Below are positions 7,811 through 23,800 of a DNA stretch of 32,000 bases, piece after piece; position 1 is the stretch's first letter, and every line of letters begins with the position of its first letter. The stretch is from the NCBI RefSeq assembly GCF_000007185.1, contig NC_003551.1:1110001-1142000 (forward strand), given 5' to 3'. This stretch comes from Methanopyrus kandleri AV19 (GTDB taxonomy: Archaea > JAADCQ01 > Methanopyri > Methanopyrales > Methanopyraceae). The notes beneath the pieces are model-generated. The model did no database searches, was not told where the DNA came from, and saw only the letters and a program-made list of their open reading frames with translations. Position numbers and translations under genes: made by a program.

Positions 7811-7918
7811 GTACTACATCGGGATCAAACCGACGGTTCCCCCGAGAGTCCCCCGGTCACGGTACGATGAGTTAAACCGCGTGGAACCCGGGCGGGCGTC
7901 GACACCCCCGTGACGCGT

Positions 7919-8440
7919 TCACACCCGGAGCTCGGGCCTGGGCCTCGCCGGGTGCGACACCGCAGCCCTATCCCAGTCGTGTGCGGCCCAGTCCGAGTGC
8001 TCGTAGTACGTGCTCCCCTCGACCCAGCGCACGCTCACGAGCGACTCCCTCGCGACCTCGAAGGGGAGCCGTACCCTCCAGGGCACGTGCGTCCTGAAGG
8101 CCCTCACGCGCTCCCCGAGGAGCACGTGCGCACCCTCGGGTAATGGTCCGTCCTCGAGGAACGTCGAGTCCTCGGTCACCGGAAACCCCTCCGGGTCGGG
8201 CACGAGGAGCACGACCTCAGCGCCCGGTGGGCCCTCGACCCGGAGGACACCCTCACGCCACTCGGACCGCGCCTCACCCAACCGCCGGAAGAACCGCTCG
8301 AACGTACCCGGCAGGTCCCCGGAAGCCACTTCGACCCAGCGGTCGTCTCGGAGCCTGAAGAGGGCACCCTCGTCCAGCTCGGGGGTGCGGAGGACCGCGG
8401 TCGTGACAGGATGGAACTGGAACGTGCGCATAGCGTCCAC
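7919..8440 (-). CDS. Hypothetical soluble protein
   Basis: The 173-aa ORF starts at GTG 8440 and has strongly GC-rich third codon positions like the confident genes here. The composition is balanced and non-repetitive. No recognisable motif. Confidence 0.65.
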   Translation of the reverse strand: MDAMRTFQFHPVTTAVLRTPELDEGALFRLRDDRWVEVASGDLPGTFERFFRRLGEARSEWREGVLRVEGPPGAEVVLLVPDPEGFPVTEDSTFLEDGPLPEGAHVLLGERVRAFRTHVPWRVRLPFEVARESLVSVRWVEGSTYYEHSDWAAHDWDRAAVSHPARPRPELRV

Positions 8441-9000
8441 CCTCCCACGCCAAGAGGGCCGCCCCTACCGTGCGACCTCCCGATATCACTCCCGGTACCA
8501 ACGGGTATTAATTTAACGATAAACGAGATGAATCGGTGGGGACCGCGCCGTCCGGAGGAATCACCCCAGGAGCCCGCGGATCCCGTCCGCAAGGTCCCGA
8601 GGCAGTTAAGACCCCGTTTCATCGACCGTCGGGATGCTTCCGATGAAGAGTCACTCCCCTGCCGAGTGGTGACGAGTTTTCCTCTTGGCGGAGGACGTCC
8701 GAGGCCTCCGCCGGATCTCCTACTCCGAGTTGAGGATGCGGCGTTGAAACGGTACCACACGGGTCCGGACGGACCGCGGCACCTGGAGCCACTTCCACGG
8801 AGCGTACATCCCATCGAAGCCGGGTAATTCGTTTCCGAATCAACTCGCCCTCGCAGTGCTCCAAGGCGAGGAACTCAACTTTCGGCCGAGGCCCACCCTC
8901 GACACGTCTCGGCTCCGCGGACATAGCCCGAGGATGGAGGAGACGTCCACCGCCACGCTCGTCCCGACGGTGATGGTCGGTCGACCCGGAACGTCGGATC

Positions 9001-10284
9001 CTACGACGTCCTCGAGCGCTCCCCATTCCTCCTTCGGATCCCCGCGATCTCGTAGTAATCCGGTAGCGACTTGAACCTCCGGTGCTTGCGGATCCACTTG
9101 CCCGGCTCGTCGTACTCGACATCCTCCTCCGAGTCCTCCTCCTTCCGAGTGTCGGCGATAGTGGCCTCGCCCACACCGTTCGAGTCTCCCTCCAACTCCT
9201 CCCACATCCTCGCGTAATGGAGCTCCTTAGGCTCCCTTCCACCACGCAACGTCCGAACGATACAGGCTCCGACGGCTACGAAGTACGATATCGTCAAGAT
9301 CAGTAATACCGTCTTAATGTCCACCTCCAGCTCCCATCCGACACCCAGCTTCTCACACACCTCGTCCCAAGCATCGATCGAGAGGACTATCAGACCGGAG
9401 GTGGAGGGTCCGACTATGGGCGGGATCCCGTCGATCGCCTCGAACCCCAGGTACGCCAGCGATTTCACCTCTATCCCGGCCAGACGCCCGCGACTCCCGA
9501 GCACGAACGCCTTGATCCACCTCTTAGGCACGCTCACCTTCCCCTCCATCAACCCCGCGACCGCCAACACCGCCCGGGCACGCAGTTCACGGACCCGCTC
9601 GGGCTTCCGGGTCAACACGAACCCTCGCGAGACGAGCACGATCGTGTGGGCCCCAGGGGAGGGTTTGATCCGGATCTCGTCCCCCCGAGGTCGAACGAAC
9701 ACCTCGTGGTACGAGGAGAGCAAACCCTCGCAGGCGAGTAACTCACCCCGACCGGGGAGCACATCGGCCAACCTCTCGGCCAACTCCTCGTCCCTCAAGA
9801 AAGTGTGAACGCGCCACGCATCCACCTCAACGTGACCGCCGAAAGTCACGATACCGACACGGTGATACTTGAACGACGAAACCCTGACGACGATCCAACC
9901 GTCGTCGGTGCTCACGTCTTTAACTTCGATATATTTGTTTAAAACCAAATTCACAAGATAGGGTATTATAACCAAAATTAACGCTATCTCGAATTTGAGT
10001 CGAGCACAAAAGAAGAGCCCAAATGCTGGAAAGAAAGTCATTAGAATTAAACTAGCGACGGCTGGATGGAGTACTATCGGAGTCGGTAACGGTATCGTCT
10101 TTCTGTAAATTATATAGTATTTCAGCGGCCCTGATCGCGGTTTTGGTTCCGATAAATTCCACAGGATAGCTATTGGATATGACCATATCGGAAGTGATAA
10201 CCAAAATATTGTAATAATGACTACTATTATAGATGTTAATCCGATATTAGACAGTAAGTAGTCCAAGGAGTCCAAGGGCGTCAC
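9001..10284 (-). CDS. Multi-TM envelope protein: N-terminal TM bundle, soluble beta-rich domain, one TM helix, acidic tail
   Basis: The 427-aa ORF starts at GTG 10284, forming a GTGA overlap with the upstream gene's stop. The N-terminal roughly 125 aa are Ile/Leu/Phe-rich helices encoded in AT-rich DNA; the rest is GC-rich. The middle segment 'LLACEGLLSSYHEVFVRPRGDEIRIKPSPGAHTIVLVSRGFVLTRKPERV' is loosely alignable to the LGYCE-family domain. The acidic tail reads 'EEDSEEDVEYDEPGKW'. Confidence 0.7.
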   Translation of the reverse strand: MTPLDSLDYLLSNIGLTSIIVVIITIFWLSLPIWSYPIAILWNLSEPKPRSGPLKYYIIYRKTIPLPTPIVLHPAVASLILMTFFPAFGLFFCARLKFEIALILVIIPYLVNLVLNKYIEVKDVSTDDGWIVVRVSSFKYHRVGIVTFGGHVEVDAWRVHTFLRDEELAERLADVLPGRGELLACEGLLSSYHEVFVRPRGDEIRIKPSPGAHTIVLVSRGFVLTRKPERVRELRARAVLAVAGLMEGKVSVPKRWIKAFVLGSRGRLAGIEVKSLAYLGFEAIDGIPPIVGPSTSGLIVLSIDAWDEVCEKLGVGWELEVDIKTVLLILTISYFVAVGACIVRTLRGGREPKELHYARMWEELEGDSNGVGEATIADTRKEEDSEEDVEYDEPGKWIRKHRRFKSLPDYYEIAGIRRRNGERSRTS

Positions 10285-11423
10285 CCTCTACGCGCTTTAT
10301 ACAAATACATTACTTCCGTCAACAGGTCCAATACTTTCCTCTTAGAGGTTATAGGAGAGATTACTAGTGAGATCCCAGTAGATACTGCGACACTGGCGAG
10401 TTGGGGTACGATCACGTAGAATAAGATCGCGTGGAGCGGGTCACTACTAGCTTTTAATATAGTGCAAATTATGTAGTAAACTATGACTAAAGATAGCACA
10501 TAAACGATGATTGGTGTGAACGCCGGGTGGAGACTCGAGAGTAGCATTAGACCGTTACTCTTCACGATTCTATGGCTGGATTCTACCAACGAAACGCCTT
10601 TGGAGCCCACTACAGCGAACTCTATTAACCATTCGAGTAAACTGATTCGATCCAATGATACGTTAGTCTTTTCTTCTATATCTCGTAATGTTGAGGTGTA
10701 ACTATTCCTACCTAAGAGCAATGGTAAGGTTACAGTAGCGAGCGCGTCAAAGTTGTAAACTTTATCTAAATTTGTATTAGATTGGCTTGTAGTCAGTGTA
10801 ATCCCAGGAGTAATCACTGATACGATATTCCCGTTTTCAGGGTTGTGTTTTACTTCAATAATGCTCGAGCCTGGTTTCAACACGCCTAGGTAGAAGTTGA
10901 CACGTTCGACGCCATCAAGTGTGGAAAATAATGTTCTCAGAAGACGCTCGGTCCGCTTTGAAATTGAGTACTTTATAAGTTCGCTACCGCGTGTTTTAAG
11001 TTCTAATTGGATGTTATTAGTGTGTATATTCTCGCTGAAACTAGCGATTAAGATTGGTTGGTAAGTGATTGTGAAAAGCTTGATTCTAATTTTGTGGTTA
11101 GACGGTAATACTTTCGCTATAGTTATGTATGGGGTCATTGCAGCGAGCCAGAGTGACAGTGATGCTGTGATGGTAACTATGATTAAAATTGCTGTAAGTC
11201 TGAGGAAGTGGAGGTGCTTTTCTTTGGTGACAATACATACGCCACACTCTACGAGGATACTTATGAGAAATACAATATATGATGATACCATGGATAGTCC
11301 AGGGGGTATTAAGATCGGGTACGATCTTAAGATTACGTGATCATCGAGTGTTTCTCGCCTGCACCTAGCCTCTCGCCGGGCCAGTCCTCTCGCGAGAACG
11401 ACCAGGAGAGGGGGTGTGATCAC
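10281..11423 (-). CDS. Multi-TM envelope protein encoded almost entirely in an AT-rich island
   Basis: The 380-aa ORF has N-terminal and C-terminal TM helices flanking an Ile/Ser/Asn/Thr/Lys-rich soluble domain ('FYLGVLKPGSSIIEVKHNPENGNIVSVITPG'). An alternative start ATG 11291 ('MVSSYIVFLISILV') lies just inside the compositional switch near 11345. The gene is translationally coupled to 9001..10284 by a 4-nt overlap. Confidence 0.7.
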   Translation of the reverse strand: MITPPLLVVLARGLARREARCRRETLDDHVILRSYPILIPPGLSMVSSYIVFLISILVECGVCIVTKEKHLHFLRLTAILIIVTITASLSLWLAAMTPYITIAKVLPSNHKIRIKLFTITYQPILIASFSENIHTNNIQLELKTRGSELIKYSISKRTERLLRTLFSTLDGVERVNFYLGVLKPGSSIIEVKHNPENGNIVSVITPGITLTTSQSNTNLDKVYNFDALATVTLPLLLGRNSYTSTLRDIEEKTNVSLDRISLLEWLIEFAVVGSKGVSLVESSHRIVKSNGLMLLSSLHPAFTPIIVYVLSLVIVYYIICTILKASSDPLHAILFYVIVPQLASVAVSTGISLVISPITSKRKVLDLLTEVMYLYKARRG

Positions 11424-11490
11424 GATGATCGAGAAGAGGATCGAGAAGAGCGTGATGAAGGCGATGATCTGCCCGGGCTCGAGAGCCAGC

Positions 11491-11763
11491 TCAAGCCGCC
11501 CCCCACTCCTTCTTCAACCCGGCCGCATGCGGTACTCCCACGGGCTCACGCTCGTCATCAAATGCCTTCTTTATAGTCTCCTTCCCCTTTTCTTCCCAGC
11601 ACTTGGGAACTCCTCCGTTGTAAGTAGGCGGCGTTAATCCCTCAGTAGCCTTGTTGGCGAGACCTTTAGCGAGAGTCCCAGACACTAAGCCCGAGACACC
11701 GACAGCTGTGTTGACGATTCTTTCCCTAACCCTCCCTCTATCACCACGCATCACGTCCCCCAC
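11491..11763 (-). CDS. Small hypothetical protein
   Basis: 90-aa ORF ('...IVNTAVGVSGLVSGTLAKGLANKATEGLTPPTYNGGVPKCWEEKGKETIKKAFDDE...'). It has intermediate GC and plausible composition, but no motif. Confidence 0.35.
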   Translation of the reverse strand: MGDVMRGDRGRVRERIVNTAVGVSGLVSGTLAKGLANKATEGLTPPTYNGGVPKCWEEKGKETIKKAFDDEREPVGVPHAAGLKKEWGAA

Positions 11764-12165
11764 GACCCTCGAAGACCAGGCTCAATATTACGTACAGTGA
11801 GAGGACGGGGTAGAGCTTCCGGAGGAGGTCACCCACCCGGCCCGACTCGACCCGCAAGGAACCAGAACTCCGATACGACCTCCCTCACCTGGGGATCACC
11901 GCAGATTAAGCGCAGGAAGTCCTCCACGGGCGACGGACCCCCGCGCGACCTCCGTTCGGGCGGAGGGGGCGGTTCCTCACCGCCTTTCGTCTCCGGAGAG
12001 TTCAAATGGGGAGCGCTCAACCCCGTCCCGTGGACCGACGGTGATCGGCGGGGGCGGTCGGGGGGCTTGATCGAGGTCCTGACGGTCCTGCTAGCCCACG
12101 ATCCGACCCTCATGGACCCGTGCACGCACGGGTTGGAGGTCGTTGTCACCGGCGTGCGGGGCGCC

Positions 12166-12258
12166 GGGAGGGTTGGGGGTGGGAGGGAGGAGACCGGTGG
12201 CGTGGGTAAGGGCGTTGGAGGCGGGGGTCGTGGTGGGAAGGTTGGTGGGGGCGGGAAG
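12166..12258 (+). other. G-run cluster with a canonical G-quadruplex motif
   Basis: Eleven runs of 3 or more G occur within 93 nt. The core is GGGAGGGTTGGGGGTGGGAGGG (12166-12187), with loops of 1-2 nt. It lies immediately upstream of the probable start of the 12262..12807 gene. Confidence 0.8.
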
Positions 12259-12261
12259 ACC

Positions 12262-12807
12262 GTGCACCCGAGTGAGTTGTTGACGAAGCCCAAGTGGCGG
12301 TTCCTCCGCGAGACCCTCGGGGGCGGGGTGAAGGCTCGACGGGCGCACGCGTTCCGATGGTTGACCCGCGCGTACCACCCGCTCCGATCGTACTACCTGT
12401 CGAGCCTGGCGACCGCGTTCACCGGCCTCTGCGTCGGACTACTGGCCGTCCCCCTGGCGACCCGCGCTCGACGGTGGAGGCCCGAGACGGTCGCCTTCGC
12501 GGCGATCGCCCTGATCGTGACGGTCTCGACACTGTGCTGGGAGGCGTTCCTGGGGTACCTAGCATCGTGCCAGTTCCTCGCTAGGGTGACGGAGGGGGAC
12601 GCTCACCTCGCCCTGAGCGAGTTCCGTACGTGGGGGATCACGGGCGTGGGTTACCTGCTCGCGGTGTACGCCGTCCTCGCCTCCCTCCTGGCGTGCGCAG
12701 CGTGGAGGAAGCTGGGCGGTCGAGCCTCGCTCCGCCTCGCCCCGCTCCTGGTGCTCCCGTTCCTAACCGGACTGTGGTTCATCCGACTCGGACTCGCGGT
12801 GGCGTGA
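12262..12807 (+). CDS. Small 4-TM membrane protein (the credible 3' part of the long ORF 11797..12807)
   Basis: From GTG 12262 (TTG 12277 and 12280 are alternatives) the product is 'VHPSELLTKPKWRFLRETL...' followed by four clear hydrophobic helices. The upstream 155 codons of the ORF are Gly/Arg/Pro low-complexity and look non-coding. The 3' end overlaps the convergent gene 12763..14079 by 45 nt. Confidence 0.5.
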   Translation: MHPSELLTKPKWRFLRETLGGGVKARRAHAFRWLTRAYHPLRSYYLSSLATAFTGLCVGLLAVPLATRARRWRPETVAFAAIALIVTVSTLCWEAFLGYLASCQFLARVTEGDAHLALSEFRTWGITGVGYLLAVYAVLASLLACAAWRKLGGRASLRLAPLLVLPFLTGLWFIRLGLAVA

Positions 12808-14079
12808 CGCGATCGGGTCACCATCCCTCGAGAGCCACTTCCCATACCACTTCCCATCGTAGGGATCGCGCCCCAGCACGCTCTCGTACACTCGACCCTC
12901 CCTCACAAGCCTCCAGCTGCGCAGGGCCGTGTCGAGATTGATGACAAACACCCCTAGGGCCGAGACGGGCGGGATCAGGAGGATCGCCGGGGCCAGGTAC
13001 CACCAGGTGTGGAGAAGTTTCAAGCTCGGCTTCACCCCGATCAGCTTCACCCACGCCGGCGTCACCAGACAGCACACACCGGTCCCGAGCATGCTGACGG
13101 CAACCTCGTAGTGCCTTAACACGTCAGTCAGGGAAAAGCGGCGGTTGAGGTACACGAGCTCGTTCCAGCCGGCTCGGTTGTTCACGACGGACCCCAACAG
13201 CCCGTCCACCTCCTCCGGCTCGGGGGACTCCTCCTTCTCCAAGCACAGGGCCGCGTACACCATTGAGAACTTCTCCCACCACCGAAGGAGGTGGAAGGCC
13301 TTCTCACGATCCTTCAGCAGTCCCTGAGCGTCGTGGAGTACGCACACACCTCGGGTCCTCAGGAAGAGGAAGCCGCAGTCCCGAACCTCCACCTTGCACG
13401 GACCGGGCCTGAAGTACCCGACCCGAATTCTCAAATTCGATGGCTGACCACCCGGCGCCTCCCCGTACCTAACCGGGTAGGAGCTGAGCTCCCGGAACCT
13501 CGAAACCTCCACCTCCCCATCCGTGATCAGCTCGGCCTCGCAGTACCCCAGTGAGAGCAGCGCGATGGAGAGCCTCCGCCGGTCGCCCCTCATCCGGGGG
13601 AATCCGATGAACCCGAGGGTGAGGGCGGCCGGCAGCGCGCTCGACACGGTAAGGCAAAGCATCAACGACGTCAGGGCAAACACGATGAACGACGGGCTAA
13701 ACCACTCCCGCCCGGTTAGGGGTAGGGACCAGACGACGAAAACCGGGAGTGTGGACGATACGAGCAGGGAGAAGAGAATGAGTTCTCCAACCTGAGCACG
13801 TGTGAACAACAGGCGGAACGAGGCCGTGCGACAACGAACGGTACACCGATCGTGAAACGTTACGTCGCGGGGCCCTGGAACCTCCTCACCCTGGAAGATC
13901 GCATCGCATATCCCGAAGGACAACCATACGCTTAAAGCGCACGATCCTATCGATACGGCAAGTACACTCAAGATTACAATTGAATCATATCCACAGATCG
14001 AACCGAGTACTACATAGGCCAAGAGAGAGACGTAACCCAAGCTCGCCAGTAACAGCTTAGATGATCTAGAGATACGCAT
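12763..14079 (-). CDS. LGYCE-domain membrane protein, paralog A
   Basis: 438 aa. It has N-terminal TM helices, then the conserved block 'LSLGYCEAELITDGEVEVSRFRELSSYPVRYG...NLRIRVGYFRPGPCKVEVRDCGFLFLRTRGVCVLHD...REKAFHLLRWWEKFSMVYAALCLEKEE', then two C-terminal TM helices. It is clearly homologous to 27775..28991 and 29876..31204. Confidence 0.8.
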   Translation of the reverse strand: MRISRSSKLLLASLGYVSLLAYVVLGSICGYDSIVILSVLAVSIGSCALSVWLSFGICDAIFQGEEVPGPRDVTFHDRCTVRCRTASFRLLFTRAQVGELILFSLLVSSTLPVFVVWSLPLTGREWFSPSFIVFALTSLMLCLTVSSALPAALTLGFIGFPRMRGDRRRLSIALLSLGYCEAELITDGEVEVSRFRELSSYPVRYGEAPGGQPSNLRIRVGYFRPGPCKVEVRDCGFLFLRTRGVCVLHDAQGLLKDREKAFHLLRWWEKFSMVYAALCLEKEESPEPEEVDGLLGSVVNNRAGWNELVYLNRRFSLTDVLRHYEVAVSMLGTGVCCLVTPAWVKLIGVKPSLKLLHTWWYLAPAILLIPPVSALGVFVINLDTALRSWRLVREGRVYESVLGRDPYDGKWYGKWLSRDGDPIASRHRESESDEPQSG

Positions 14080-14112
14080 CGTCGAAGAGCAGCCCCCAAG
14101 CCGGCGTTACGA

Positions 14113-14406
14113 CTAGTCAAAAAGGGACGAGTCAAGGTCATAGAGGGATGGCCACCTTAATGCGTACAGTGATAGTGCAGTGGTAACAATCACGTACGTT
14201 GCTTCATCGTACTCCTTTTTGATATACTTAGCAACCGCTCCTACAGTCTTAAATAGAGCTCCAATAACGACAAGTGCGGTTAAGATCCCCGTTACATTTA
14301 ATTGTAAAGGTGGCAAGCGGGGTGATACGTACGGCAATATCCACAGTGCAGTGGACCCTATGTTCATCAGGAGATCTCCGAAGGTAATAAGAGTGTCAGG
14401 ATCCAA
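14113..14406 (-). CDS. Small 3-TM membrane protein
   Basis: The 97-aa ORF in AT-rich DNA has hydrophobic segments 'GSTALWILPYV', 'VTGILTALVVIGALFKTVGAV' and 'YVIVTTALSLYAL'. It sits between the truncated giant-gene copy and paralog A on the same strand. Confidence 0.55.
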   Translation of the reverse strand: MDPDTLITFGDLLMNIGSTALWILPYVSPRLPPLQLNVTGILTALVVIGALFKTVGAVAKYIKKEYDEATYVIVTTALSLYALRWPSLYDLDSSLFD

Positions 14407-14450
14407 GCCCCTCTTCTTGCGGACATAATCCCAGAGATTGGCGGCATCAC

Positions 14451-15695
14451 TTATGCCGAGGGGATAGGCCCGCCGAAAGAGGTCACGTTCTCCTCGAAGA
14501 ATTTTTGGAACGCTTCACCTAGCGCTGATATTATGCTCCTCTTATCGTCTGGCTCTAGCGGTGATGCTGCGATCGCCCCGACGAACGTAATAAACACTGA
14601 GTACATTACTTGCGTTATTACGTAGTCAAAATACATTAAGGTGGTGACTCCTTTTTTACCTTTTGTATATACTTTCAGCGTTCCAGTCGTCGGGTCGTAT
14701 TCTGGTACTTCCCCTTTAGTCAACATCTGTATTGAAGACTCTTTGCTAGTTCTTCCGTATGGTTTTACCTCCAATTCCTTTAGCAGTCTCTCTAAGCCCA
14801 GCTTGATGTTGTCAGGCAGTAGTATCCACTCTTCCTCACCGTAATATGGCTCTCCGGTAACCTTAGAAATTACATAATTCTCTATAACCTGTGTTAGTAT
14901 CGAAGCCCTAGTGTTGAGCGCTCGTTGTGTCACCGGATCCGCGTAGAATTCAACCCCAAGTAGTACCGTAGGCGTGTCCAAAGAGAGTCCCAGTCGGACT
15001 TTATTATCATCCTATTTCTCGACCGTAACCTGTGCGACAATCACTCCGAGTAGAGCCCTAACTCAACTCGCTTTATAATCCTAACAGAGCTTGTTTATAG
15101 TTTAATTGTAATAATAAGCTTCGAGAATTAGTAGTAAGCTTGTTAGTACTATCAGGGCTAGTTTCTCATCCTATTTGACCTCGTCCTTGAGCCCAGCTAG
15201 TGCTTGGGCCCATTTGGTAAAGTCCTCTGGGGAGTACTCGAACCCGGGTGGTAGGCATAATACTACGAGGTAGAATTCACTCTCTAACTTAATAGTACGT
15301 AGTGCCTTCGGACCGTACTCCACGGTGATCTCGTTAACTGGTGGAGCACGCTTCCACTCCGGGGGTAGTACCGGATTCCTCAGATCGATGACGGAATACT
15401 CCAGGTCCCCTCGGGTCGTGTGGATTAGTAGTAGACTGGGCTCGGTGAGGTCGATCGCTTGGTCATCGAGCTTGACCCTCACCTTGAGCTCGCACAGTAA
15501 CTCGCTCTTACCCGGTTCCAACAGCGCGTGGTACTCCCTCCCCACTCGGTACGTTAGTCCTAGGAGCCAGACTCGGGCTCGCGGTGGTCGGTCCAAGAGG
15601 ACGAGCTTCTCGATCCTCTGACCGGGTGGTGCTTGGACCCTGAGGAGCCAAGCGCGCACTCTCTTATCATCTCATCTAGCTGCGCCAGCTAAGAC
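14451..15695 (-). pseudogene. Inverted, truncated, stop-interrupted copy of the 3' end of giant gene 20802..26363
   Basis: The minus-strand translation is colinear and in frame with residues encoded at about 25035-26075. For example, 'VRAWLLRVQAPPGQRIEKLVLLDRPPRARVWLLGLTYRVG...' matches 'VRAWFLKVQAPPGQRIKKLVLLDRPPRARAWLLGLTYRVG...', and 'LDTPTVLLGVEFYADPVTQRALNTRASILTQVIENYV' is almost identical. In-frame stops lie at 15672-74, 15171-73, 15102-04, 15081-83, 15063-65 and 15012-14. Two stop-free stretches remain: ORFs 15171..15659 and 14451..14981. The last 65 or so codons (14451 to about 14645) are unrelated to the giant-gene tail. Confidence 0.85.
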
Positions 15696-15913
15696 CGAGC
15701 CCTGTCAACGAGTGTCACTGGGTCCGGCGCCCCCCGATACAGGAAATCGTTGTAATAACCGTAACGATGTGCTCTTACACTGTCGGATTGGAGGCACGCC
15801 CTGAGTACTCTCTGTAAACTTCGGGTTATCACACTCCGAAAACTGTAATGATCATTTAGTCTCGGAGAAGTGAACGTCTGCGCGACTCGGTCGGTTAGGG
15901 GAACATCGCGGGT

Positions 15914-18900
15914 ATGTCCCGGTTGAGAGTAGCTTCAGTGATCATCTGGTTGCTGTGGATCTCCCCACCGGCCTCCGGGTACGTGTGCTGGAGTGTTCCC
16001 GTCGGGGAGTCCGTGACCTCGGTCGAATCATGTGGGGACGCGGCCGTACTGGTGACGAGTTCTAATCGCGTCCTGGTGGCCGAGCTCGACGCGTCGAGCG
16101 TCCGACTCTCGGAGGTCCTCAATTTCCACCTACCCAGTGGAACGAAAGTAGTGTCCGTGATGAGGAGCGGATTAGGACTCGTCTTCGACGCGGGCCGAAT
16201 CCTCGATGACGGCATCGAGGTCTATCGTGGGGTTCTTACACACGGGGATAGAGGATGGAGGGGCGAACTGGTTCGGACCGTAGCCAAGTTCGAGGAGATT
16301 TCCCAACGGGTCAAGTCCGGAGAGTGGCGAGTCCTCGAGGTCTCTAACCTGGCTTCCGACCGTACTGGCGGGCTGTACGCCGCCGCGCTGTTAGAATCCG
16401 TGGACGGGGATTTAATCGTAGAGGTTTGGAATTTACCGGAGAGGAGCGTGATCGCGGACTTCTCGGCGACTGAGGTGAGAAGACTGGCGATAGGGGACGA
16501 AGGCACGCTCTTAGTGGCGTGTGGAGATGGAGTCGCCGTCGTCGACGGTAGGAATGTACGGTTCGTTACCGTCCCCGGTGTCGTCATCGACATGGTGGGA
16601 AGGTGGGTTCTGTACGAGGATTGGCTAGGTTACGCGCTGGGGGAGGTTACGACTTCGGGGTTACGTGAGCTGGTGAGATTACCCGGGCCAGCGCATCGCG
16701 TGACCGTATGGTCGACGGGTGGGGATGCCTACATCCTAGCTTACGGTGGGAACATCGTCTACGTTGTGGACCCCGAGGATCGGACCGTAGTAACGGTGTT
16801 AGACTTACCCGGACGCGTGGAGTTCCTCGCCCCGCCTTTCGTCGTTTACTCCGGTAAAATCGGCGTCTTGTACCTCGCCAAGATTATGGTACAACTGGAA
16901 GAGGGCTTGTGTCCGGCGGTGAAAACGTGGTTCGTGTGGCTGGACTGGTGTGCCGTATACATCGTCGACAGGAAGGTACCTGCGATATACAAAGTAGTTG
17001 AAGTTCGAGACAAATTAGGCCCTAATTGGATTAAAACTAGGAGTGGAGGAGTGACCTTTTGGTACAAACGAGTCTTTTTAAAAAGAGTTTGGCCACGGCA
17101 CCCTACAGAACTTCATCTTGATGATATTGGTATCGTCGTAATAGGAGAACGTAATTCTAAGATACGAGTATACTGCTTAGATGAACGTACTGAGGAAGTA
17201 TTGAAGAATTTGCTTCGTTCGCCGGACGTATGCGATATACTCAATGTGTATCCTGGCTCTGCAGTCTTCATAGTAGATTTCAAATGGAGGGATCAAAGGA
17301 TACCGGCCTTCCGGTTTGTCAGGAAGTCCGGGTGGCTGGTCACGGGGTTCATCGATGAGGACGACGTCTGCCCGAACTCGGATTACGACGACGTCGTCTT
17401 GAGCGTCCCAATCTCACCCCTAACGGCCGCTCACTCGGGGATGCCGGTAATACCCTTACTCTACGGTAAGGACTGGGTATTACTATCGGCACTCCTTCCC
17501 AACTTCGACTGGTGCTGGGATAAAACGAGCGAGTTGAAAGTGTTCGTTAACGGTAAGGAGTCCGAGTTCTACGTGGTGGACTGGTCCAATAAGACCATTC
17601 GTGGTCCGTTCACGAAGTTAAAATTAAAAATTGGTAAAGATAAGCAGTTATTCATACTATTACGCGGCTTGTCCGAACCCGAATCTATCAGGATCGTTCT
17701 CAAGAGGCCTTTGGGACCCGTGTATGAGGGTTATACGGAATACGCCCCGCCTAAGGTCTCGATCTCCCGACCGTCCGCCCGTTTAGTCGAGTATAACGCG
17801 AAGGAAGACAAGGTCACGGTCGCAGTGAGCGCGGAAGTGAGCGTCCGAAACACCGTCATCAGGAGACTGACAATCGAAGTGTTCGACCTCTTCGGTAGGA
17901 CACTAACACGTAAAGTGATGGGGCCTCTACCGCCCGGAAAACACCATATCGAAAAACGACTGAGTTTCATGCCCCCCGAGCACGGCCCGCTCAAGATCAT
18001 CCTCCTCGCCGAGTACGACGGTGACCTGGTTATCGTGAGTGATCGTGAGTTCGTACTCCGGGCGGAGCCCGAGCGGGCGGAGCTAACCGTCTCTTACGAA
18101 CGACCCGGTAGACTCACCGCACGCGTACTGGACTACGGTCGGGATTGGGTCGAACTCCGCGTAGAATCCGAGGAACCCGGGAACCTCCACCTCGAGGACT
18201 CGAAGGGACGACCCGTACCCTACTACGTCCTCGAGGGTAACGAGCTCTCGGGACCGTACGACGGGGAACACCCGCTCGAGTTGGGCACGACACCCGTGAT
18301 CCTCATCCTACGGGACTTGAAACCCGGGGAGGCCTACCGGTTCAAGCTGATACGCGAGGGTAGGATCCCGACCGCGTTCGAGCTCGAGTGCGCCCTCCCC
18401 GAAGCCAACCTCGACGTCGAACTCCTGAGCGGTACCCTCGAGGGACGCTCTCTGACGTTGAAATTCTCAGTCCGGGGCTCCACCGTGAACTCGACGTTCA
18501 AGAGGTTGAACCTAGTCCTGCGAGAGGATGACCGAATCCTCTGGCGTGAGGAGGTCGACCTGGACAATACCACGTGGTTCGACCTACCCTTCGAGACCAC
18601 GGTCGAGGTGGGCGGTGACGAGGGCACCCTCACCCTCGAGGTCACCGCCCATTACGACCACGACACCGTCCTCCCGGAGGGTAACGAGTTCGAGGTTCGA
18701 GAGGCACCCGCGAGGCGGGTCCTGAGGATCGCGTACGGTCGCCCGCACGTCGAACTCGAGGACTACGGACTCAACTGGCTCCTACTCCGAATCCTCCCCT
18801 GGAGACCGGGCGACCTACTCGTACGGGTGAATGGGAAACCAGTAACGTACTATGTGAAACATGGAAACGAGTTCGAGAAACACTCCGAGGACGACCCGTA

Positions 18901-20821
18901 CCACGCGAGCGGGGCGAACGCGGTCGAAGTCCTACTGTACGACCTCGAGAAGCACGGTACGATCACGGTGATCAACCGGTCGAGCACTCTCTCCAGTGCT
19001 AGCACGCTCGATTACGCGCTACCCGAGGGTGTCGAGCTCGCCGCGGAGGTCGTCGGCGGGAGGTACCTCGTCGACGAGGGTAGGCTCACCCTGAACGTTC
19101 GAACCCTCGTGAGCCCGATCGACGTCACGGTGCGTCGGATCATCGCCCGCGTCCTGGACGACTTGGGTGAAATCCTCGGGGAGACGGTGAAGACCGTCGA
19201 GTTGGGACCCGGGATCCACGAGCTCACCCTGCCAATCGAAGTCCGCGTGCACCGAGAGTGCGGTCGCCTCCGGTTACAAGCCCTCGCCGAGTTCGATCAC
19301 GGTACGATCGTGAGAGATCCCGGGGAAGGACCCGTCCCCAACCCGGCCTCGCGCACGATCGAGTTCTCGTACTCGGCCCCGAGCGTCCGCGTGGTGGACC
19401 GGGGGATCGACTGGGTATTACTCGAAGTGACGACTCGGGAGGGTGGTGAACTCGTCGTTCACGTGAACGGTCGGAAGGCCTGGTACTATCTCAAGCGGTC
19501 GAGGGGTGGTGATTGGGAGGGCCCGTACGATCCGACGAGCGTGGGCCCGAACCGTACCGTGCTCGTCCTCGTCCCGGGTGTCCCACCAGAAGGTAGGATC
19601 TCAGTGGTCCTGGGCGGGCGGCTCGAGAGGGTTCGCTCCGTGGAGTACGCGCTTCCCAGTGTAATCGCGCGGGTTGATGTAGAGGACGTCTCGGTGAGCG
19701 GGGAGAAGGTGATCGCGATGATCTCCCTGTGGTTGGAGGTTCTGGGGACTACGGTGAGAAGCATTGGGGTAAGCGTGGACGGCGTGAAGTCGTGGTCGGT
19801 GAGCGCGCTCGAGGACGGTGAACCCCTGCGATTGGACGACCTGGAGCTCGGTGAGGGAGTACATCTGGTCAGGTTATCCATCAAGTTCGTGCCGAAGGAG
19901 CGGGCTGGTACGGTCCCCGTAACCCTGAGGGTCCAGTACGAGGGTGACTCCACGTTCGACCCGGGACGCCGCGAGTTCGTGGAGAGTCCTCTCGTCCTGA
20001 CCTTGAACGTACCCTACGTCCTACCTCAACGGCAGACCTCGAAGGAGTCCGGACCGAGGGGTGGGAGTCCTAAGGTCCCCGAGCGCGGTGGGACCGCAGT
20101 GGACCGAGGGAGCACGACCGCCGGGGAGTCCGGCACCGGGCGGAGCGCCGTCACCGAACCTACGCACGCCTCGACTCGAGTCGAGAGGAGACCGTCCAAC
20201 GAGGAGAGACCGCACGTCGTACGACCCACCCCACCGACCCGATTCCCAATTAGACCCGTCCGGACCGAGACGGGGCACGAGGTCAAGCCGAAGCCCCTCG
20301 AGAAGCTTCCCGAGGCTCTTCCACACCCTTCGAGCTCCCTCCCCGACACCCTCGAAGCGCGGTTGACCCCCGTGCTGGTGAGCCTGTTCGACAGGTTATG
20401 GGACCTGCTCACGAGTCTCCTCTCCCAACCCACGATCACGGGCCACGCCGAGGGTGAACCCACCGCGAAGGTAACCCGGCGTCCCATCGAACACGCGCCG
20501 AGCGAGCCCTCGAGACCCCGAACTCCGACGGGGAGCGCGGCCCTCCAGGGTCCACCCCACGGTACGACCGTACCCCAAGGATACCACCGCGTGGGAGCCC
20601 TCTCGGCGCACGCGCCTCACACCTTCCGGGAAGTGGAAATCCTTAAAACACGAACCCGGGGTTACGCTTACGCAGAGGGAACATCCAGAGTCTCGCGGTC
20701 GCTCACCCGCCTACCACCCACGGGCGTCAACCTGCTAGCCCTCCTCCTGAGCGTATTCGGCGCGCTAACCGGCCTGTACTTGACCCATAGGTCGGTTCGG
20801 GGTGGGGAGGGCGGTGAGTAG
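15914..20821 (+). CDS. Giant secreted surface protein 1 (1635 aa) with a C-terminal LPPTG-plus-TM anchor
   Basis: One uninterrupted 4.9-kb ORF starts at ATG 15914. The signal peptide is 'MSRLRVASVIIWLLWISPPASG'. The N-terminal third has beta-propeller-like strand repeats ('LIVEVWNLPE', 'LLVACGDGVAVVDG', 'YILAYGGNIVYVVDPEDRTVV'). Four tandem modules of about 210 aa follow, then a Pro/Thr/Arg/Ser-rich linker. The C-terminus is 'LPPTGVNLLALLLSVFGALTGLYLTHRSVRGG'. Confidence 0.9.
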   Translation: MSRLRVASVIIWLLWISPPASGYVCWSVPVGESVTSVESCGDAAVLVTSSNRVLVAELDASSVRLSEVLNFHLPSGTKVVSVMRSGLGLVFDAGRILDDGIEVYRGVLTHGDRGWRGELVRTVAKFEEISQRVKSGEWRVLEVSNLASDRTGGLYAAALLESVDGDLIVEVWNLPERSVIADFSATEVRRLAIGDEGTLLVACGDGVAVVDGRNVRFVTVPGVVIDMVGRWVLYEDWLGYALGEVTTSGLRELVRLPGPAHRVTVWSTGGDAYILAYGGNIVYVVDPEDRTVVTVLDLPGRVEFLAPPFVVYSGKIGVLYLAKIMVQLEEGLCPAVKTWFVWLDWCAVYIVDRKVPAIYKVVEVRDKLGPNWIKTRSGGVTFWYKRVFLKRVWPRHPTELHLDDIGIVVIGERNSKIRVYCLDERTEEVLKNLLRSPDVCDILNVYPGSAVFIVDFKWRDQRIPAFRFVRKSGWLVTGFIDEDDVCPNSDYDDVVLSVPISPLTAAHSGMPVIPLLYGKDWVLLSALLPNFDWCWDKTSELKVFVNGKESEFYVVDWSNKTIRGPFTKLKLKIGKDKQLFILLRGLSEPESIRIVLKRPLGPVYEGYTEYAPPKVSISRPSARLVEYNAKEDKVTVAVSAEVSVRNTVIRRLTIEVFDLFGRTLTRKVMGPLPPGKHHIEKRLSFMPPEHGPLKIILLAEYDGDLVIVSDREFVLRAEPERAELTVSYERPGRLTARVLDYGRDWVELRVESEEPGNLHLEDSKGRPVPYYVLEGNELSGPYDGEHPLELGTTPVILILRDLKPGEAYRFKLIREGRIPTAFELECALPEANLDVELLSGTLEGRSLTLKFSVRGSTVNSTFKRLNLVLREDDRILWREEVDLDNTTWFDLPFETTVEVGGDEGTLTLEVTAHYDHDTVLPEGNEFEVREAPARRVLRIAYGRPHVELEDYGLNWLLLRILPWRPGDLLVRVNGKPVTYYVKHGNEFEKHSEDDPYHASGANAVEVLLYDLEKHGTITVINRSSTLSSASTLDYALPEGVELAAEVVGGRYLVDEGRLTLNVRTLVSPIDVTVRRIIARVLDDLGEILGETVKTVELGPGIHELTLPIEVRVHRECGRLRLQALAEFDHGTIVRDPGEGPVPNPASRTIEFSYSAPSVRVVDRGIDWVLLEVTTREGGELVVHVNGRKAWYYLKRSRGGDWEGPYDPTSVGPNRTVLVLVPGVPPEGRISVVLGGRLERVRSVEYALPSVIARVDVEDVSVSGEKVIAMISLWLEVLGTTVRSIGVSVDGVKSWSVSALEDGEPLRLDDLELGEGVHLVRLSIKFVPKERAGTVPVTLRVQYEGDSTFDPGRREFVESPLVLTLNVPYVLPQRQTSKESGPRGGSPKVPERGGTAVDRGSTTAGESGTGRSAVTEPTHASTRVERRPSNEERPHVVRPTPPTRFPIRPVRTETGHEVKPKPLEKLPEALPHPSSSLPDTLEARLTPVLVSLFDRLWDLLTSLLSQPTITGHAEGEPTAKVTRRPIEHAPSEPSRPRTPTGSAALQGPPHGTTVPQGYHRVGALSAHAPHTFREVEILKTRTRGYAYAEGTSRVSRSLTRLPPTGVNLLALLLSVFGALTGLYLTHRSVRGGEGGE
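17465..20020 (+). repeat. Four tandem two-domain modules of about 210 aa inside giant protein 1
   Basis: The recurring pattern is '(D)YG.DW.LL.V...G.L...NG....YY.....L.GPYD' followed by 'EYALP...' and a second beta-like domain ending in '..YDHGT....'. Module landmarks are at 17465 (degenerate), 18131 (DYGRDW), 18761 (DYGLNW) and 19397 (DRGIDW). One further copy occurs in giant protein 2 at about 21340-21960 (DYGRDW at 21360). Confidence 0.7.
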
Positions 20822-23800
20822 GCTCCTCCCCGTGGTCCTGTTCCTAGCCTTGGTATCGGTCGTGCCCGTGGGCGTTCAAGCCCAGTCGTTCAAAGTCTGG
20901 GTCGAGGTGGAACCCTCGGTCCACACGTTCCTCGGGGCCAGCGTGTACCTCGTGGATAACGAGCACAAGGCGTTATACTCCCTGGGCGAATACAGTACCG
21001 TGATGGAAAAGTCCAAACAGCAGACTCAACCGCGACCACTCTACCCGAAGGATCGGAGCGAACCCCTCGGAGAACTCGACCTCGACGCCCTCGGCGTCGC
21101 CGTCTCGTGCTGGTTCGGGGGCGTCGGTTGCTCGGACGATCGGACCATGCGAACCCTCCTCCAGGTACTCGAGATGGACGACGAGGTCCGCGCGCGAGTC
21201 CTCGGGAACGTCTGCCCCACTCTAACCATGTTCGGGAACGTGCCCGTGCACGTGACCGAGTGTCGCGTCGAGAGGACCGAGAACACACTCACCTTCAAAT
21301 TCACCCACTACGGGATCACCGTCAGGATCGTCAAGAGCGAGCTCAAGGTGCAAGTCACCGACTACGGGAGGGACTGGTTACTACTCCACGTCGAACCACC
21401 CTCGAGCGGGAAGCTCTCGATCGAGGAGAACGGTGAGACACTGGCCTTCCACACGCTGACCTCCGACGGGACCCTCTCCGGACCGTACACCGTGCTCGAG
21501 GTGGAGGAAGGCCGCCCCCTCGATCTAGTCGTTAAGGACCTCGAGCCCGGTGAGAAGAGCGCCCTCGATGTAGTCCTTGAGGACGACCTGGGCATCACGG
21601 TCAGGAAACGCGTCGAGTACGCGCTACCACTGGTGAACATCGAGAGCCTCACCGTGGAACCGGGTAACCCGCTCAGAGTGAAGCTCAGGCTGAGCGTGAA
21701 GAACACGATGGTTAAGAGGATCACCGTACGAGTCGTGGACTGCACTACCGGCGGGGTGCTCACCGAGCGGGCGTTCGACGTCGGATTGTCCGAGGGCGAG
21801 CACGAGCTCGAGTACTCGATAGAAACCCCGAACACCACGGACCCGCTCGCCGTGTTCGCCGCGATCGAGTACGATCACGGTACCACGCTGGAGGGCGAGA
21901 AGTTCGAGCCCGTAGAAACCCCCGCGCAGGACTTCACCACGATCGTACCCTCGACAGGCACGCCCGAGGTCATGCTCGACGTCGAGACCCCGGAACGAGC
22001 CCATCTGGGACTACCCGTCGAGATGACGGTACACGTTCGGCTAGGCCGGATCCCACTCTCCACGGGAGAAATCCGAGTAACCACCGAGGACGGGAAAACC
22101 CTCGCCCGAACCACCGTCTCGAACGGCGAGGCGAGAATGCTCATCCTCCCCACTCACACTGGCGACGTGGAACTCCACATCGAGTACTACCTAGGCTCGA
22201 GGAAACTGGCCGAGAGGGAACTCACCCTCCACGTCTCGAACGAGTTCCACGGGTTCACCGCCGACATCGTGAGCCCGGGCAACCTGGGCTCCCTGGGCTA
22301 CGACCTCCGCGGGTCGTACATCCCCGAGAGGAAATACCCCGCGAAGGACGAGCCCATGTTGTACATCTACAGGACCTGGTGGGATGAATACTACCCGTTC
22401 CTCGTCCAACCCGCGGACCGCCCGAACGCCCTCCTCGCGAACGGCCTGAAGATCACCCTACCCGAACCCGCCGACACCGTGTACATGCTAACCCTACCAG
22501 TACGCGTCCACTACCCGATCAGGGTCACGATCGAGGACTCGAGCGGGGAGCGCGTGACCAGGAAACTCTGGTGGCTGAACTGGGACTGGCAATGGTGGTG
22601 GGACCACGGTTGGAGCGTGTACCACCTCAGGCTCACGGCCCGAGACCTCGGTCTAAAGGACATCACCGAACTCGAGTTCGACGTGCCGAACGGACTCCTC
22701 TGGATCCTCGCGCTGACCTACCGCTCGGGCGACGCGTACAAGGCCCTGATCGAACCCGGAAAGGGCGTGACCCTCTACCGCGAGCCCGGACCGGTCGAGA
22801 TCGAGCTCGAGGGCTGGCCCGCGGGCTCGGACCACGAGGTAGTCTGGAGGAAGGTCGGGGACGAGTGGATCCCCTTCTACCTGTGCCCGAAGGATCACCC
22901 AAACGCACTCCCCGCAGACCACCTACTCCTCCACATACCCCACGACGCCGACCGAGCCTACATCCTACTCTACGCGCGCGAGGACACGACCGCCGAGTAC
23001 GGTATCCTAACACTCAAGACCACCGTCCCGCTCGAACTCCCCTGGAAGTCGAACGTACCACGCTCCGACGACTTCGACCACCTGGCAGTCCTCGAGATCC
23101 CCTGCAAACCGAGCTCGCTAGCACGATCACGCGGTAGGGTGCTCCTCGTCAACGCCCCGAACGCGTACGTCATCGCCATCACCTACCACCTGGGGGACAA
23201 GTACGAGGCACACGCTCCAGACGGCGAGAAAATCACCCTCACGAGCAAGGACCTCCCACACTACCACAACGCGAACATCCTCCGAGAGACCATCGACTCC
23301 GAGGAGCACGGGTTACCACCCGAACTCTGGCACGAGGGCGTAGCCTACCACTGGCTCCCCGTACCCGGGACAGTACTCCACGTGCAAATCCCCTTCTACC
23401 TCGCGCCGAAGGACGCCGAGAACGCGATCAAGGTCGAGAACGACCTGAAGATCCAACTCCCCGAGGGGACCAAGGCCGTCTACCTCCTCTACATCGCGAC
23501 CGACCAACGCGACCCCAAGGACCGCCCCGCGAGCAAGTACCACCTCGAGATCACCCTCGACGACGGGCGGACCGTCCAAGCCATCGTACTACTACCCGAT
23601 TATCTAGCGCTCACTCGGGACCCGAGTACGGCCCTACTAGCCATGGACTACGCGCGCACGAACCCCACGGGCTTAATCCTCATCACCCAACGACCCGCCT
23701 GGCACCTCCCGGTACTACTCAAGGACGACCAACCCGAGGAGGCGCACGCGTACGCCTGGGTCCTAACGATCGCGACGGGCGAGGAGCACACGATCCGCGA

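Follow-up and report, generated by a model that had tools for sequence, protein, structure and literature searches.

A probable orphan 3' cassette of a giant secreted-protein gene in the MK-5 locus of Methanopyrus kandleri AV19

Two giant genes between inverted arms

The window analysed here is a stretch of 32,000 nucleotides from the genome of Methanopyrus kandleri AV19 (NC_003551.1, positions 1,110,001 to 1,142,000). It contains two giant genes that overlap by 20 nt, membrane-protein genes on both sides of them, and two inverted arms that enclose both giant genes together with their upstream, promoter-bearing region. Among the related sequences used for comparison, L014 is the metagenome contig Ga0485369_452128, which could be chimeric, and L010 is GCA_053992195.1. 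The main features are as follows.

12763-14079, minus strand: 438-aa multi-pass membrane protein, 3' of the left cassette; paralogue of the right-hand 442-aa and 298-aa genes (sequence comparison)
14647-15671, minus strand: left arm, which repeats the last beta-rich module, linker and stalk of giant gene 2 in inverted orientation; truncated at its 5' end, and in the parental frame over its whole length (alignment and in-frame translation)
15196-15263, no strand: core identical to 25452-25519; gene-conversion tract and break point of short-read assemblies (68-nt exact run, permutation test, contig ends)
15672-15913, no strand: spacer of 242 nt between the left copy and the start codon of giant gene 1, with an in-frame TGA at 15674-15672 (sequence)
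15914-20821, plus strand: giant gene 1, 1,635 aa with a signal peptide and repeat modules; lies between the two arms (ORF; orthologues in L012, L015 and L019)
20802-26363, plus strand: giant gene 2 (AAM02362.1 / WP_011019517.1), annotated as an "MK-5 family" secreted repeat protein (ORF, annotation)
25044-26077, plus strand: right arm, made up of the final module, linker and stalk of giant gene 2; the left arm's expressed counterpart (alignment)
26078-26363, plus strand: R-type tail (95 aa; 2-3 hydrophobic helices), not related to the L-type tail, with which it shares 24% identity (alignment)
29876-31204, plus strand: 442-aa membrane protein, paralogous to the 438-aa gene and inverted relative to it (74% over 363 nt; sequence comparison)

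Read from 15671 to 14647, the left arm is an inverted repeat of the right arm, and the similarity is far above chance: 831 of 1,025 positions are identical in the gapped alignment (81.1%), which holds a single, in-frame indel of 9 nt. The sequence-only reading had placed an inverted copy of about 1 kb of the last module and stalk of giant gene 2 at this site, and the copy lies almost exactly there, with its 5' edge at about 15671-15690 rather than at 15695; the segment of roughly 9.4 kb said to be bracketed by the arms measures 9,372 nt. The alignment consists of one pair of 510 nt at 86% (15162-15671 and 25044-25553) and another of 524 nt at 77% (14647-15170 and 25554-26077), and identity by segment goes from 85.6% (15671-15171) through 80.4% (15170-14982) to 74.6% (14981-14647). 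The longest exact run shared by the arms is 68 nt (15263-15196 on the left, 25452-25519 on the right). Both arms have an AT content above that of the surrounding sequence. With a minimum length of 40 nt, the repeat search gave no additional short and perfect inverted repeat at the segment ends.

The left end had been credited with a different set of downstream membrane genes; the set is not an unrelated one, the 438-aa gene being a paralogue of the genes on the right, and a tail next to a gene of the 438 family is also present in L014 and L019. Neither the giant proteins with their tails nor those downstream proteins that were tested matched anything in sequence searches of Pfam, NCBIfam and PDB. 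An AF2 model of the region from the last module to the stalk (7-sequence alignment, pLDDT 48, low confidence) has beta strands, followed by a mixed alpha/beta part and then by helices.

Lesions and reading frames of the left copy

The left copy and the L-type tail that follows it contain these features:

14113-14450, minus strand: distal L-type tail; a separate 97-aa ORF (14406-14113) in AV19, continuous with the stalk in L014 (alignment to L014)
14451-14981, minus strand: ORF176 (RefSeq WP_148679718.1), the stalk and the first 66 aa of the L-type tail (translation, RefSeq)
14455, minus strand: 1-nt deletion relative to the intact orthologue in L014, a frameshift that splits the L-type tail (sole indel in a 2,191-column alignment)
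14890-14981, minus strand: conserved stalk island (ALNTRASILTQVIENY), 3' of the last stop codon, to which the switch seen in L014 maps (alignment)
15012-15173, minus strand: patch rich in stops, with five nonsense codons in frame: TAG, TAA, TAG, TGA and TAG (translation)
15171-15659, minus strand: ORF162, the module part, from a GTG "start" to the first nonsense codon, TAG at 15173-15171 (translation; no ATG, no signal peptide)

The five stops occupy 15173-15171 (TAG), 15104-15102 (TAA), 15083-15081 (TAG), 15065-15063 (TGA) and 15014-15012 (TAG), while the extra TGA of the spacer (15674-15672) sits at the homology edge. Beyond the last stop, the stalk island is 91.5% identical to the right arm over 14900-14981, with a longest exact run of 29 nt at 14918-14890. 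The left copy carries neither a start codon nor a signal peptide, and a hand search of the 242-nt spacer gave no convincing archaeal TATA box facing it. Given these two absences, the five nonsense codons and the frameshift, the left copy is unable to make protein as it stands. Every lesion is reproduced at 100% identity in GCA_013329715.1, and Logan contigs confirm the segment with the frameshift and four of the five stops.

Judged from the substitution patterns, the AV19-specific changes look like neutral, AT-biased decay. Between 15170 and 14982 the GC content goes down to 0.31 and all such changes (13/13) run from GC to AT; in the segments designated A and B, synonymous fractions agree with the 0.40-0.43 expected under neutrality. 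C>T and G>A changes are both present on the same strand. Within the stop-rich patch, 3 of the 5 possible transition-to-stop sites are hit (P about 0.02), slightly above what neutral decay predicts. Comparison of the left and right arms gives a dN/dS of 0.12-0.21 at a dS of 0.5-1.3, which suggests that most of the divergence between them arose while both lineages were translated. Selection acting on the left copy itself was considered as the reason for the low ratio and rejected, since the ratio reflects allele lineages that formerly resided on functional genes and the AV19-specific changes match the neutral synonymous fraction.

As for the two reading frames that can be called on the left copy, ORF162 is probably not a gene, and an exact look-up of its product among recorded gene calls returned no record. 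The TTG taken as the "start" of ORF176 encodes an internal Leu in the parental frame and has no ribosome-binding site, and the TAA stop of ORF176 (14453-14451) is created by the frameshift. The deletion at 14455 means that the 97-aa ORF is really the remainder of the L-type tail, which when intact has 179 aa and two hydrophobic regions. WP_148679718.1 and the neighbouring 97-aa ORF look like fragments of one pseudogene. The alternative C-terminus that had been proposed for the left end is there, in that a different tail is encoded at 14646-14454; that it is cut by a 1-nt deletion had been missed, as had the in-frame stops, the paralogy of the 438-aa gene and the AT-richness of both arms.

Polymorphic tails and recombination among relatives

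As read from the alignments, the C-terminus of the giant gene is polymorphic in the Methanopyrus population: a stalk that is conserved up to a "…KKG" junction is followed by unrelated tails and by varying genes for downstream membrane proteins. After the junction, each of the six related giant-gene ends or cassettes has a tail unrelated to the other five, hydrophobic in most cases; the 110-aa stalk is 72-86% identical among the six sequences, as against 20-35% for the tails, most of which contain hydrophobic segments, and the genes 3' of them differ between contigs. In the search of genome contigs, the module was found in no other species representative, and a search of plasmids gave no match.

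In L014 the same cassette is intact as a 649-aa ORF with no recognisable start. From about 14,930 to 13,511, L014 and AV19 share at least 99.5% identity; upstream of that the value is 84-89%. At the sites where the two AV19 arms differ, R-type states prevail in L014 on the 5' side, whereas 82 of the last 84 sites are L-type; there is a single switch, within the conserved stalk at about 14,960-14,930. This pattern supports the view that recombination in nature has joined a module of the giant-2 type to an L-type stalk and tail. L014 was also considered as a simple inversion product; this was rejected, since its homology to the giant-2 body ends after ~470 nt, next to a PIN-domain gene.

The L010 cassette is a mosaic with a single TAG and the same 5' edge as the left copy of AV19, and the two cassettes lie in different genomic contexts. 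Permutation tests for conversion tracts gave P <= 0.0005 for the two AV19 arms against each other, for the right arm with L010, and for the left arm with L010 and with L014; in the AV19 arm pair, the 68-nt core covers 28 polymorphic sites at none of which the arms differ (P = 0.0005). On the full-length giant gene of L013, residues that mark the left copy reappear. Taken together, these patterns indicate that homologous recombination has exchanged sequence between cassettes and expressed genes, the crossovers lying in the conserved stalk and module. There is no cassette 5' of giant gene 1 in L015, nor was one present in the roughly 1 kb examined upstream of the fused giant gene of L019.

Origin of the left copy and comparison with known systems

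We suggest, with a probability of roughly 70%, that the left copy is an orphan, 5'-truncated and pseudogenised 3' cassette of an MK-5 giant gene in a recombining, C-terminally polymorphic locus, and not a programmed switch. The cassette would be a displaced or hitch-hiking 3' end, stranded beside the left-hand gene of the 438 family when units of tail plus membrane gene were replaced or rearranged between strains. Through the general RadA pathway it may still take part passively in gene conversion with giant gene 2 and perhaps, on rare occasions, in inversion, but it would not work as a programmed phase-variation switch.

An active switch, in which a RadA-mediated crossover between the arms flips the 9.4-kb segment in some cells and fuses the body of giant gene 2 to the L-type end and its downstream gene, appears highly improbable to us, even though the inverted arms bracket promoter-bearing giant genes, share a 68-nt exact core with a significant conversion tract, and have a natural chimera of R-type module and L-type tail as a precedent in L014. 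Archaeal invertons have barely been surveyed (PMC10028968), which leaves some room for such a system. The five nonsense codons, however, separate the best-matching part of the arms from the alternative tail, so that a crossover in the core or anywhere upstream of 14982 would yield a truncated giant protein 2. An open fusion is confined to 14981-14647, 335 nt at 75% identity with exact runs of at most 29 nt, and would still end at the frameshifted tail. The AV19 copy is moreover decaying neutrally, and no cassette occupies this position in L015 and L019. At assembly level, two independent assemblies show the reference orientation only, and the two assemblies that span the region (the reference and GCA_013329715.1) have the same orientation; short-read contigs break at the core, with starts at 15225 and 25490. 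The observation that no recombinase is encoded in the window was borne out, as none of the 30 ORFs has a Pfam match to a recombinase, integrase or transposase. What stands of the proposed inversion is therefore the natural recombination of module and tail in L014 and the conversion tracts between the arms, while the left copy is broken and a working switch in AV19 is not supported.

A simple inverted duplication of the gene's own 3' end within the genome, followed by random decay and with no recombinational history or role, is also very unlikely in our view. It would account for a copy that is truncated and broken, and the paralogous 438-aa and 442-aa genes do suggest an older and larger inverted duplication. 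The left tail is nevertheless of another type than the right-hand one, left-specific residues turn up on a full-length gene in L013, the low dN/dS at a dS of up to 1.3 points to a translated past, and the arms carry significant conversion tracts and mosaics. Nor does the copy fit the plain dead duplication that the sequence-only reading had itself offered as an alternative, given the intact orthologous cassette of L014 and the recombination with the giant genes. Unless L014 and L010 are assembly chimeras, the mosaics and the L014 data have largely refuted simple duplication already. We are similarly doubtful that ORF162 and/or ORF176 are genuine small genes for free-standing C-terminal module or stalk proteins, although ORF176 is annotated by RefSeq, the module ORF of L010 (165 aa) ends at an independent stop ~10 codons from that of AV19, and a 7/8 match to the anti-Shine-Dalgarno complement, read by eye, lies 6 nt before the GTG at 15659. 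Small proteins that align to the C-terminus of a large one also have a precedent in the VARTIG modules (PMC8416519). Against this, besides the internal TTG and the missing gene call, the GTG position of AV19 reads GTA in L010, both ORFs lack a signal peptide while the parent protein is extracellular, the segments form one continuous ORF in L014, and the AV19-specific changes are neutral.

Some observations sit uneasily with a relic. The intact 649-codon ORF of L014 could point to selection that keeps cassettes open, and so to a real reservoir function, and the common 5' edge of the AV19 and L010 cassettes in different contexts is not explained by a random relic; these same two observations hint at a broader reading, which we regard as improbable, namely that the MK-5 locus is a Methanopyrus counterpart of VARTIG and polymorphic-toxin loci dedicated to diversifying the anchor or recognition end of a surface protein. 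The 5'-truncated cassettes would then be a selected reservoir, and in AV19 low-frequency RadA inversion would switch giant protein 2 from an R-anchored form to a truncated or L-anchored one and back. A minority inverted isomer is compatible with contigs broken at the core, and L014 is possibly a chimeric metagenome contig.

An orphan cassette of this kind has likenesses in several known systems. In the sap locus of Campylobacter fetus, reportedly studied by Dworkin & Blaser, the conserved recombination region is said to be 5', the silent cassettes complete and intact genes, and inversion shown experimentally. There as here, RecA-type recombination between inverted conserved segments, with no dedicated invertase, would move one promoter between alternative surface-protein ends. 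The resemblance had been claimed before, but the geometry is reversed: the conserved region here is 3', and there is one cassette, broken by five nonsense codons and one frameshift, with no known isomer. The G segment of phage Mu (Gin) and the R64 shufflon (Rci) have crossover sites of ~26-34 bp and an adjacent recombinase gene. They resemble our locus in that a constant N-terminal body is joined to either of two inverted, alternative C-terminal ends, both of which have their own accessory downstream gene, whereas the arms here extend over 1 kb with 19% divergence, and no gene for a serine or tyrosine recombinase lies next to them (30 window ORFs, Pfam).

The likeness to the Rhs "vestigial tips" and the orphan cdiA-CT/cdiI modules of CDI loci, which Jackson et al. 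2009, Poole et al. 2011 and Koskiniemi et al. 2014 are said to have described, extends to more points. In both, the body of a large secreted protein is conserved and its C-terminus, set off sharply from the body (here at the "…KKG" junction), is hypervariable, and there are 5'-truncated orphans without a start codon, consisting of a conserved stretch, an alternative C-terminus and their own downstream gene (here the AV19 left copy, with truncated cassettes also in L010 and L014). The orphans are often degraded, and new combinations of ends arise by homologous recombination within the conserved stretch, as the permutation tests and the switches at informative sites suggest here. In contrast, the tails here are hydrophobic and membrane-anchor-like with no recognisable toxin domain, there is no identifiable immunity gene, the orphan is upstream and inverted so that a crossover would invert instead of deleting or duplicating, and the family is unrelated in sequence and has an archaeal host.

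The VARTIG modules of Thermococcales (Makarova et al. 2021, PMC8416519), the arCOG07710 modules, include a large Ig-domain protein whose C-terminal part has the motif DNNxxxGG, and the same paper reported no counterpart outside Thermococcales. In both cases a hyperthermophilic archaeal locus has a large secreted multi-domain protein at its 5' end, whose C-terminal region is hypervariable through recombination between strains, and heterogeneous downstream genes, mostly for transmembrane proteins, with some pseudogene fragments and no integrase. The giant proteins here differ in having no Pfam Ig domain match and no DNNxxxGG motif in the tail sequences, and their variable part is the hydrophobic tail after the stalk, the last module being conserved.

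To our knowledge, almost nothing is known about cell-surface variation in hyperthermophilic archaea, VARTIG being the one described archaeal analogue. For annotation, WP_148679718.1 and the 97-aa ORF concern one likely pseudogene, and the locus is a clean case, provided by nature, of neutral decay biased towards AT in an organism that has 61% GC and grows near 100 °C. The MK-5 locus brings the same logic as VARTIG to Methanopyri in an unrelated protein family, with a giant secreted body, a hypervariable end, truncated spare ends and variable membrane genes; and the sequences here, unlike the VARTIG data, are close enough for recombination breakpoints to be placed at nucleotide resolution.

The inverted copy and its lesions

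The repeat search returned two adjoining inverted pairs, 15162-15671 / 25044-25553 (510 nt, 86%) and 14647-15170 / 25554-26077 (524 nt, 77%), the left and right arms lying 9,372 nt apart. In a gapped alignment the arms form a single continuous homology, identical at 831/1025 positions (81.1%) with one 9-nt in-frame indel; the identity drops from 85.6% (15671-15171) to 80.4% (15170-14982) and then 74.6% (14981-14647), and the longest exact run is 68 nt (left 15263-15196 = right 25452-25519). The sequence-only reading had proposed an inverted partial copy of the 3' end of giant gene 2, and these 1,025 nt of inverted homology bear it out. Beyond 14647 and 26077 the left and right sequences are unrelated, and the left copy thus has a different C-terminal end (L-type, as opposed to R-type on the giant gene 2 side).

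Main features of the locus and stops of the left copy, from in-frame translation
15914-20821, plus strand: giant gene 1
20802-26363, plus strand: giant gene 2, annotated as an 'MK-5 family' secreted repeat protein
25044-26077, plus strand: right arm, 3' part of giant gene 2
15671-14647, minus strand: left copy
15674-15672, minus strand: TGA at the homology edge
15173-15171, minus strand: TAG, in-frame stop
15104-15102, minus strand: TAA, in-frame stop
15083-15081, minus strand: TAG, in-frame stop
15065-15063, minus strand: TGA, in-frame stop
15014-15012, minus strand: TAG, in-frame stop
14453-14451, minus strand: TAA, terminal stop

The left copy keeps the reading frame of giant gene 2 from end to end, but stops interrupt it, and the five internal ones are confined to ~55 codons of the linker. 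Because the 162 codons before this cluster and the 176 after it are open, ORF finders call an "ORF162" and an "ORF176" (RefSeq WP_148679718.1); an ATG is missing from both, the TTG taken as the ORF176 start encodes a Leu inside the parental frame, and neither has a signal peptide, though the parent protein is secreted.

The sequence of giant protein 2 matches AAM02362.1 / WP_011019517.1 (Methanopyrus kandleri) at 100%. Positions 10814-30456 match DUJS01000001.1 of a second assembly, GCA_013329715.1, with zero mismatches over 19,643 nt; Logan contigs match 15225-11758 at 100% at the DNA level (three compared), and the 438-aa product encoded left of the copy is identical in Logan contigs from five ERR97657xx runs. 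The AV19 arrangement and all lesions are thus reproduced, which rules out sequencing error. The Logan contigs start at exactly 15225 and 25490, at the 68-nt core, so these short-read contigs are silent on orientation. In base composition, both arms and the giant gene 2 3' end (25200-26400, 14000-15200) have a GC of 0.40-0.53, and the giant-gene bodies from ~18,000 on 0.61-0.67; the polymorphic gene end is compositionally distinct.

Intact relatives, mosaics and variable tails

ORF176 clusters with JGI protein P0008 (649 aa) on Ga0485369_452128 (L014), a relative's contig on which 2177-4338 aligns to window 15671-13511. Here one open frame spans module, linker, stalk and tail, and runs on through sequence that is a separate 97-aa ORF (14406-14113) in AV19; the sole indel across 2,191 columns is a 1-nt deletion at 14455 in AV19. 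The alternative C-terminus noted earlier does differ from that of giant gene 2, but the version quoted is cut short by the frameshift that this deletion causes; when intact, the L-type tail has 179 aa and two hydrophobic regions.

Identity between AV19 and L014 is >=99.5% from ~14,930 to 13,511 and only 84-89% upstream, the mismatches per 100 nt being 28, 11, 16, 18, 16, 26, 17, 7, then ~1. At the sites that separate the AV19 arms, L014 is mostly R-type 5', and 82 of the last 84 of them are L-type. Because of this change of type, L014 is a chimera of an R-like module and an L-type stalk and tail, produced by a single crossover in the conserved stalk (ALNTRASILTQVIENY). It is the kind of product expected from the recombination proposed in the sequence-only reading. 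A simple inversion product was considered for L014 and rejected: the homology to the giant gene 2 body stops ~470 nt further 5' (~L014 1709), adjoining a PIN-domain gene.

A second relative (L010, GCA_053992195.1) also has a 5'-truncated copy, which begins at the 5' edge seen in AV19 and contains one in-frame TAG. It matches the AV19 left copy at 97-98% over the first ~130 nt and the right arm at 99-100% over long stretches, and in one stretch it is similar to L006 (GCA_053991295.1). In a GENECONV-style permutation of polymorphic sites (2,000 shuffles), the two AV19 arms share a tract of 28 sites at 15260-15198 (P = 0.0005); tracts shared by the right arm and L010 (51 sites), the left copy and L010 (33 sites) and the left copy and L014 (82 sites) were each reached by 0/2,000 shuffles (P < 0.0005). 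The AV19 copy (~15671-15690) and the L010 cassette (~4528-4548) have this truncation point in common, with unrelated upstream flanks and different tail types; the L014 cassette reaches ~470 nt further 5' than this edge. About 3 kb upstream of its cassette, L010 also has an inverted 59-nt fragment (1564-1622), 97% identical to 24334-24276 in the giant gene 2 body and apart from other giant-gene sequence.

Full-length orthologues on metagenome contigs (L012/L015 at 76% DNA identity, L013 at 69%, and L019) each have a different tail directly after the "…KKG" junction. Across six sequences compared, the 110-aa stalk before the junction is 72-86% identical and the tails 20-35%; most tails have one to three hydrophobic segments. 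Residues apparently specific to the left copy (AGLKDEVKQDEKLALIVLTS, TINKLC, VTVEKQDD, LKELKVKPYG) are present on the intact full-length gene of L013. On L019 (JGI Ga0256834_1002211, 1029-11426) giants 1 and 2 are fused in one 3,465-aa ORF; this relative stands at roughly 40-50% protein identity, and the AV19 giant genes overlap by 20 nt (20802-20821). On L006 (1956-3014) and Logan contigs L007-L009 the giant-2 orthologue is broken up into overlapping ORFs of 664+, 352 and 118 aa, which indicates frameshifts in its 3' part, recurring in three SRR329380xx assemblies.

Probable decay of the copy and possible recombination in AV19

For three segments, dN/dS between the left and right arm comes to 0.14, 0.21 and 0.12 (dS 0.5-1.3). 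Taken together with the mosaic and tail data, such as the left-copy residues on the L013 gene, these values reflect the divergence of allele lineages translated as parts of functional genes, and we do not take them as evidence for selection on the AV19 copy. Changes unique to AV19 in 15170-14982 are GC>AT in 13/13 cases and transitions in 12/13; GC falls to 0.31 there, and eight of the changes are non-synonymous, four of them stops. Of the GC>AT changes, 5/10 are synonymous in segment A and 5/12 in segment B, equal to the neutral expectation of 0.40-0.43, for which every possible C>T and G>A change was counted; the pattern is that of unconstrained sequence under AT-biased mutation. Such a bias is general in prokaryotes, and is expected to be strong near 100 °C through cytosine deamination. 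Within the 189-nt patch at 14982-15170, 3/5 possible C>T/G>A stop-creating sites are mutated, somewhat above neutral decay (P about 0.02); the remaining stops are one G>T and one at the indel, and the stops lie close together.

A crossover within the 68-nt core or at any other point above 14982 would carry stops into giant gene 2, so that giant protein 2 stopped short of its stalk and anchor. An open fusion would be possible only via 14981-14647 (335 nt, 74.6% identity; an 82-nt island reaches 91.5%, and no exact run exceeds 29 nt), and even so it would finish at the frameshifted 66-aa tail. The cassette is absent upstream of giant gene 1 in L015 and from the ~1 kb of L019 upstream of the fused gene, and its 5' neighbour is different in AV19, L014 and L010. 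Because of these absences and differing neighbours, and because stops and frameshift limit the products, a conserved, programmed switch is unlikely; a passive relic that recombines occasionally fits better. The suggested inversion switch is probably wrong for AV19; the idea of a silent cassette is borne out in part, at the population and evolutionary level.

Neighbouring genes and related systems

A weaker inverted pair (13198-13560 / 30425-30787, 74%) marks the 438-aa gene left of the copy as a paralogue of the right-hand 442-aa gene. DUJS01000001.1 ends at 30456, 31 nt into the right arm of this pair, which may be an assembly break at the repeat. The gene content after the tails varies, with two extra membrane-protein genes in L013; L019 has a 438-family gene immediately after the giant-gene tail, as at the AV19 left locus. 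A multi-pass membrane family with the conserved motif '...FLFLRTRG.C.L...FSMVYAAL...' recurs beside the giant genes, lying to either side of them in opposite orientations.

Copies of the multi-pass membrane family
AV19: 28095-28991, 29876-31204, 12763-14079
Relatives: L010 3055-4110; L019 13-249 and 11454-12416

Elsewhere in the window, a CRISPR array at 1458-2535 has 12 copies of the repeat GTTTCATTACCCGTATTATTACGGGTTAATTGCGAG at a spacing of 85-108 nt, with no cas-family Pfam match among the tested neighbouring ORFs. A low-GC island (9600-11600, 0.40-0.42) holds minus-strand ORFs 9001-10284 (427 aa) and 10281-11423 (380 aa), both lacking a Pfam match, and may be foreign DNA. Just 2/30 window ORFs scanned have Pfam matches, an MFS transporter (4332-5444) and a DUF1678 protein (5624-6253), the rest of the window being orphan sequence. 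No recombinase was found among these 30 ORFs, in agreement with what had been said of the window.

With no recombinase among the scanned ORFs and no separate short perfect inverted repeat reported at a minimum length of 40 nt, the AV19 locus differs from invertase systems, and the likeness drawn to the Campylobacter fetus sap locus fails on cassette integrity and on which gene end is conserved. Two kinds of system come closest. Rhs and CDI loci have C-terminal modules that are orphaned or "displaced". In the VARTIG modules of Thermococcales, a large secreted protein has a C-terminal region made hypervariable through recombination, with smaller C-terminal homologues, variable downstream transmembrane genes, pseudogene fragments and no integrase; the paper reports that no counterpart was seen beyond Thermococcales (PMC8416519). 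Neither an Ig or toxin domain nor a DNNxxxGG motif was found in the AV19 locus proteins and tails tested, and by these sequence criteria the locus is probably outside both families. Only 42 archaeal long-read datasets have been screened for chromosomal inversions (PMC10028968), and an active archaeal inversion would therefore be notable; the evidence does not support one in AV19.

We suggest instead that units made up of a tail and the membrane-protein gene downstream of it pass between Methanopyrus strains through homologous recombination, with the conserved stalk or module as the anchor. The left locus of AV19 would then be a displaced or hitch-hiking 3' end, retained beside the left-hand 438-family gene, itself possibly an old inverted flank that is also present in L019. 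Gene conversion from giant gene 2 may since have patched the left copy at the 68-nt core, while its unpatched parts would be decaying.
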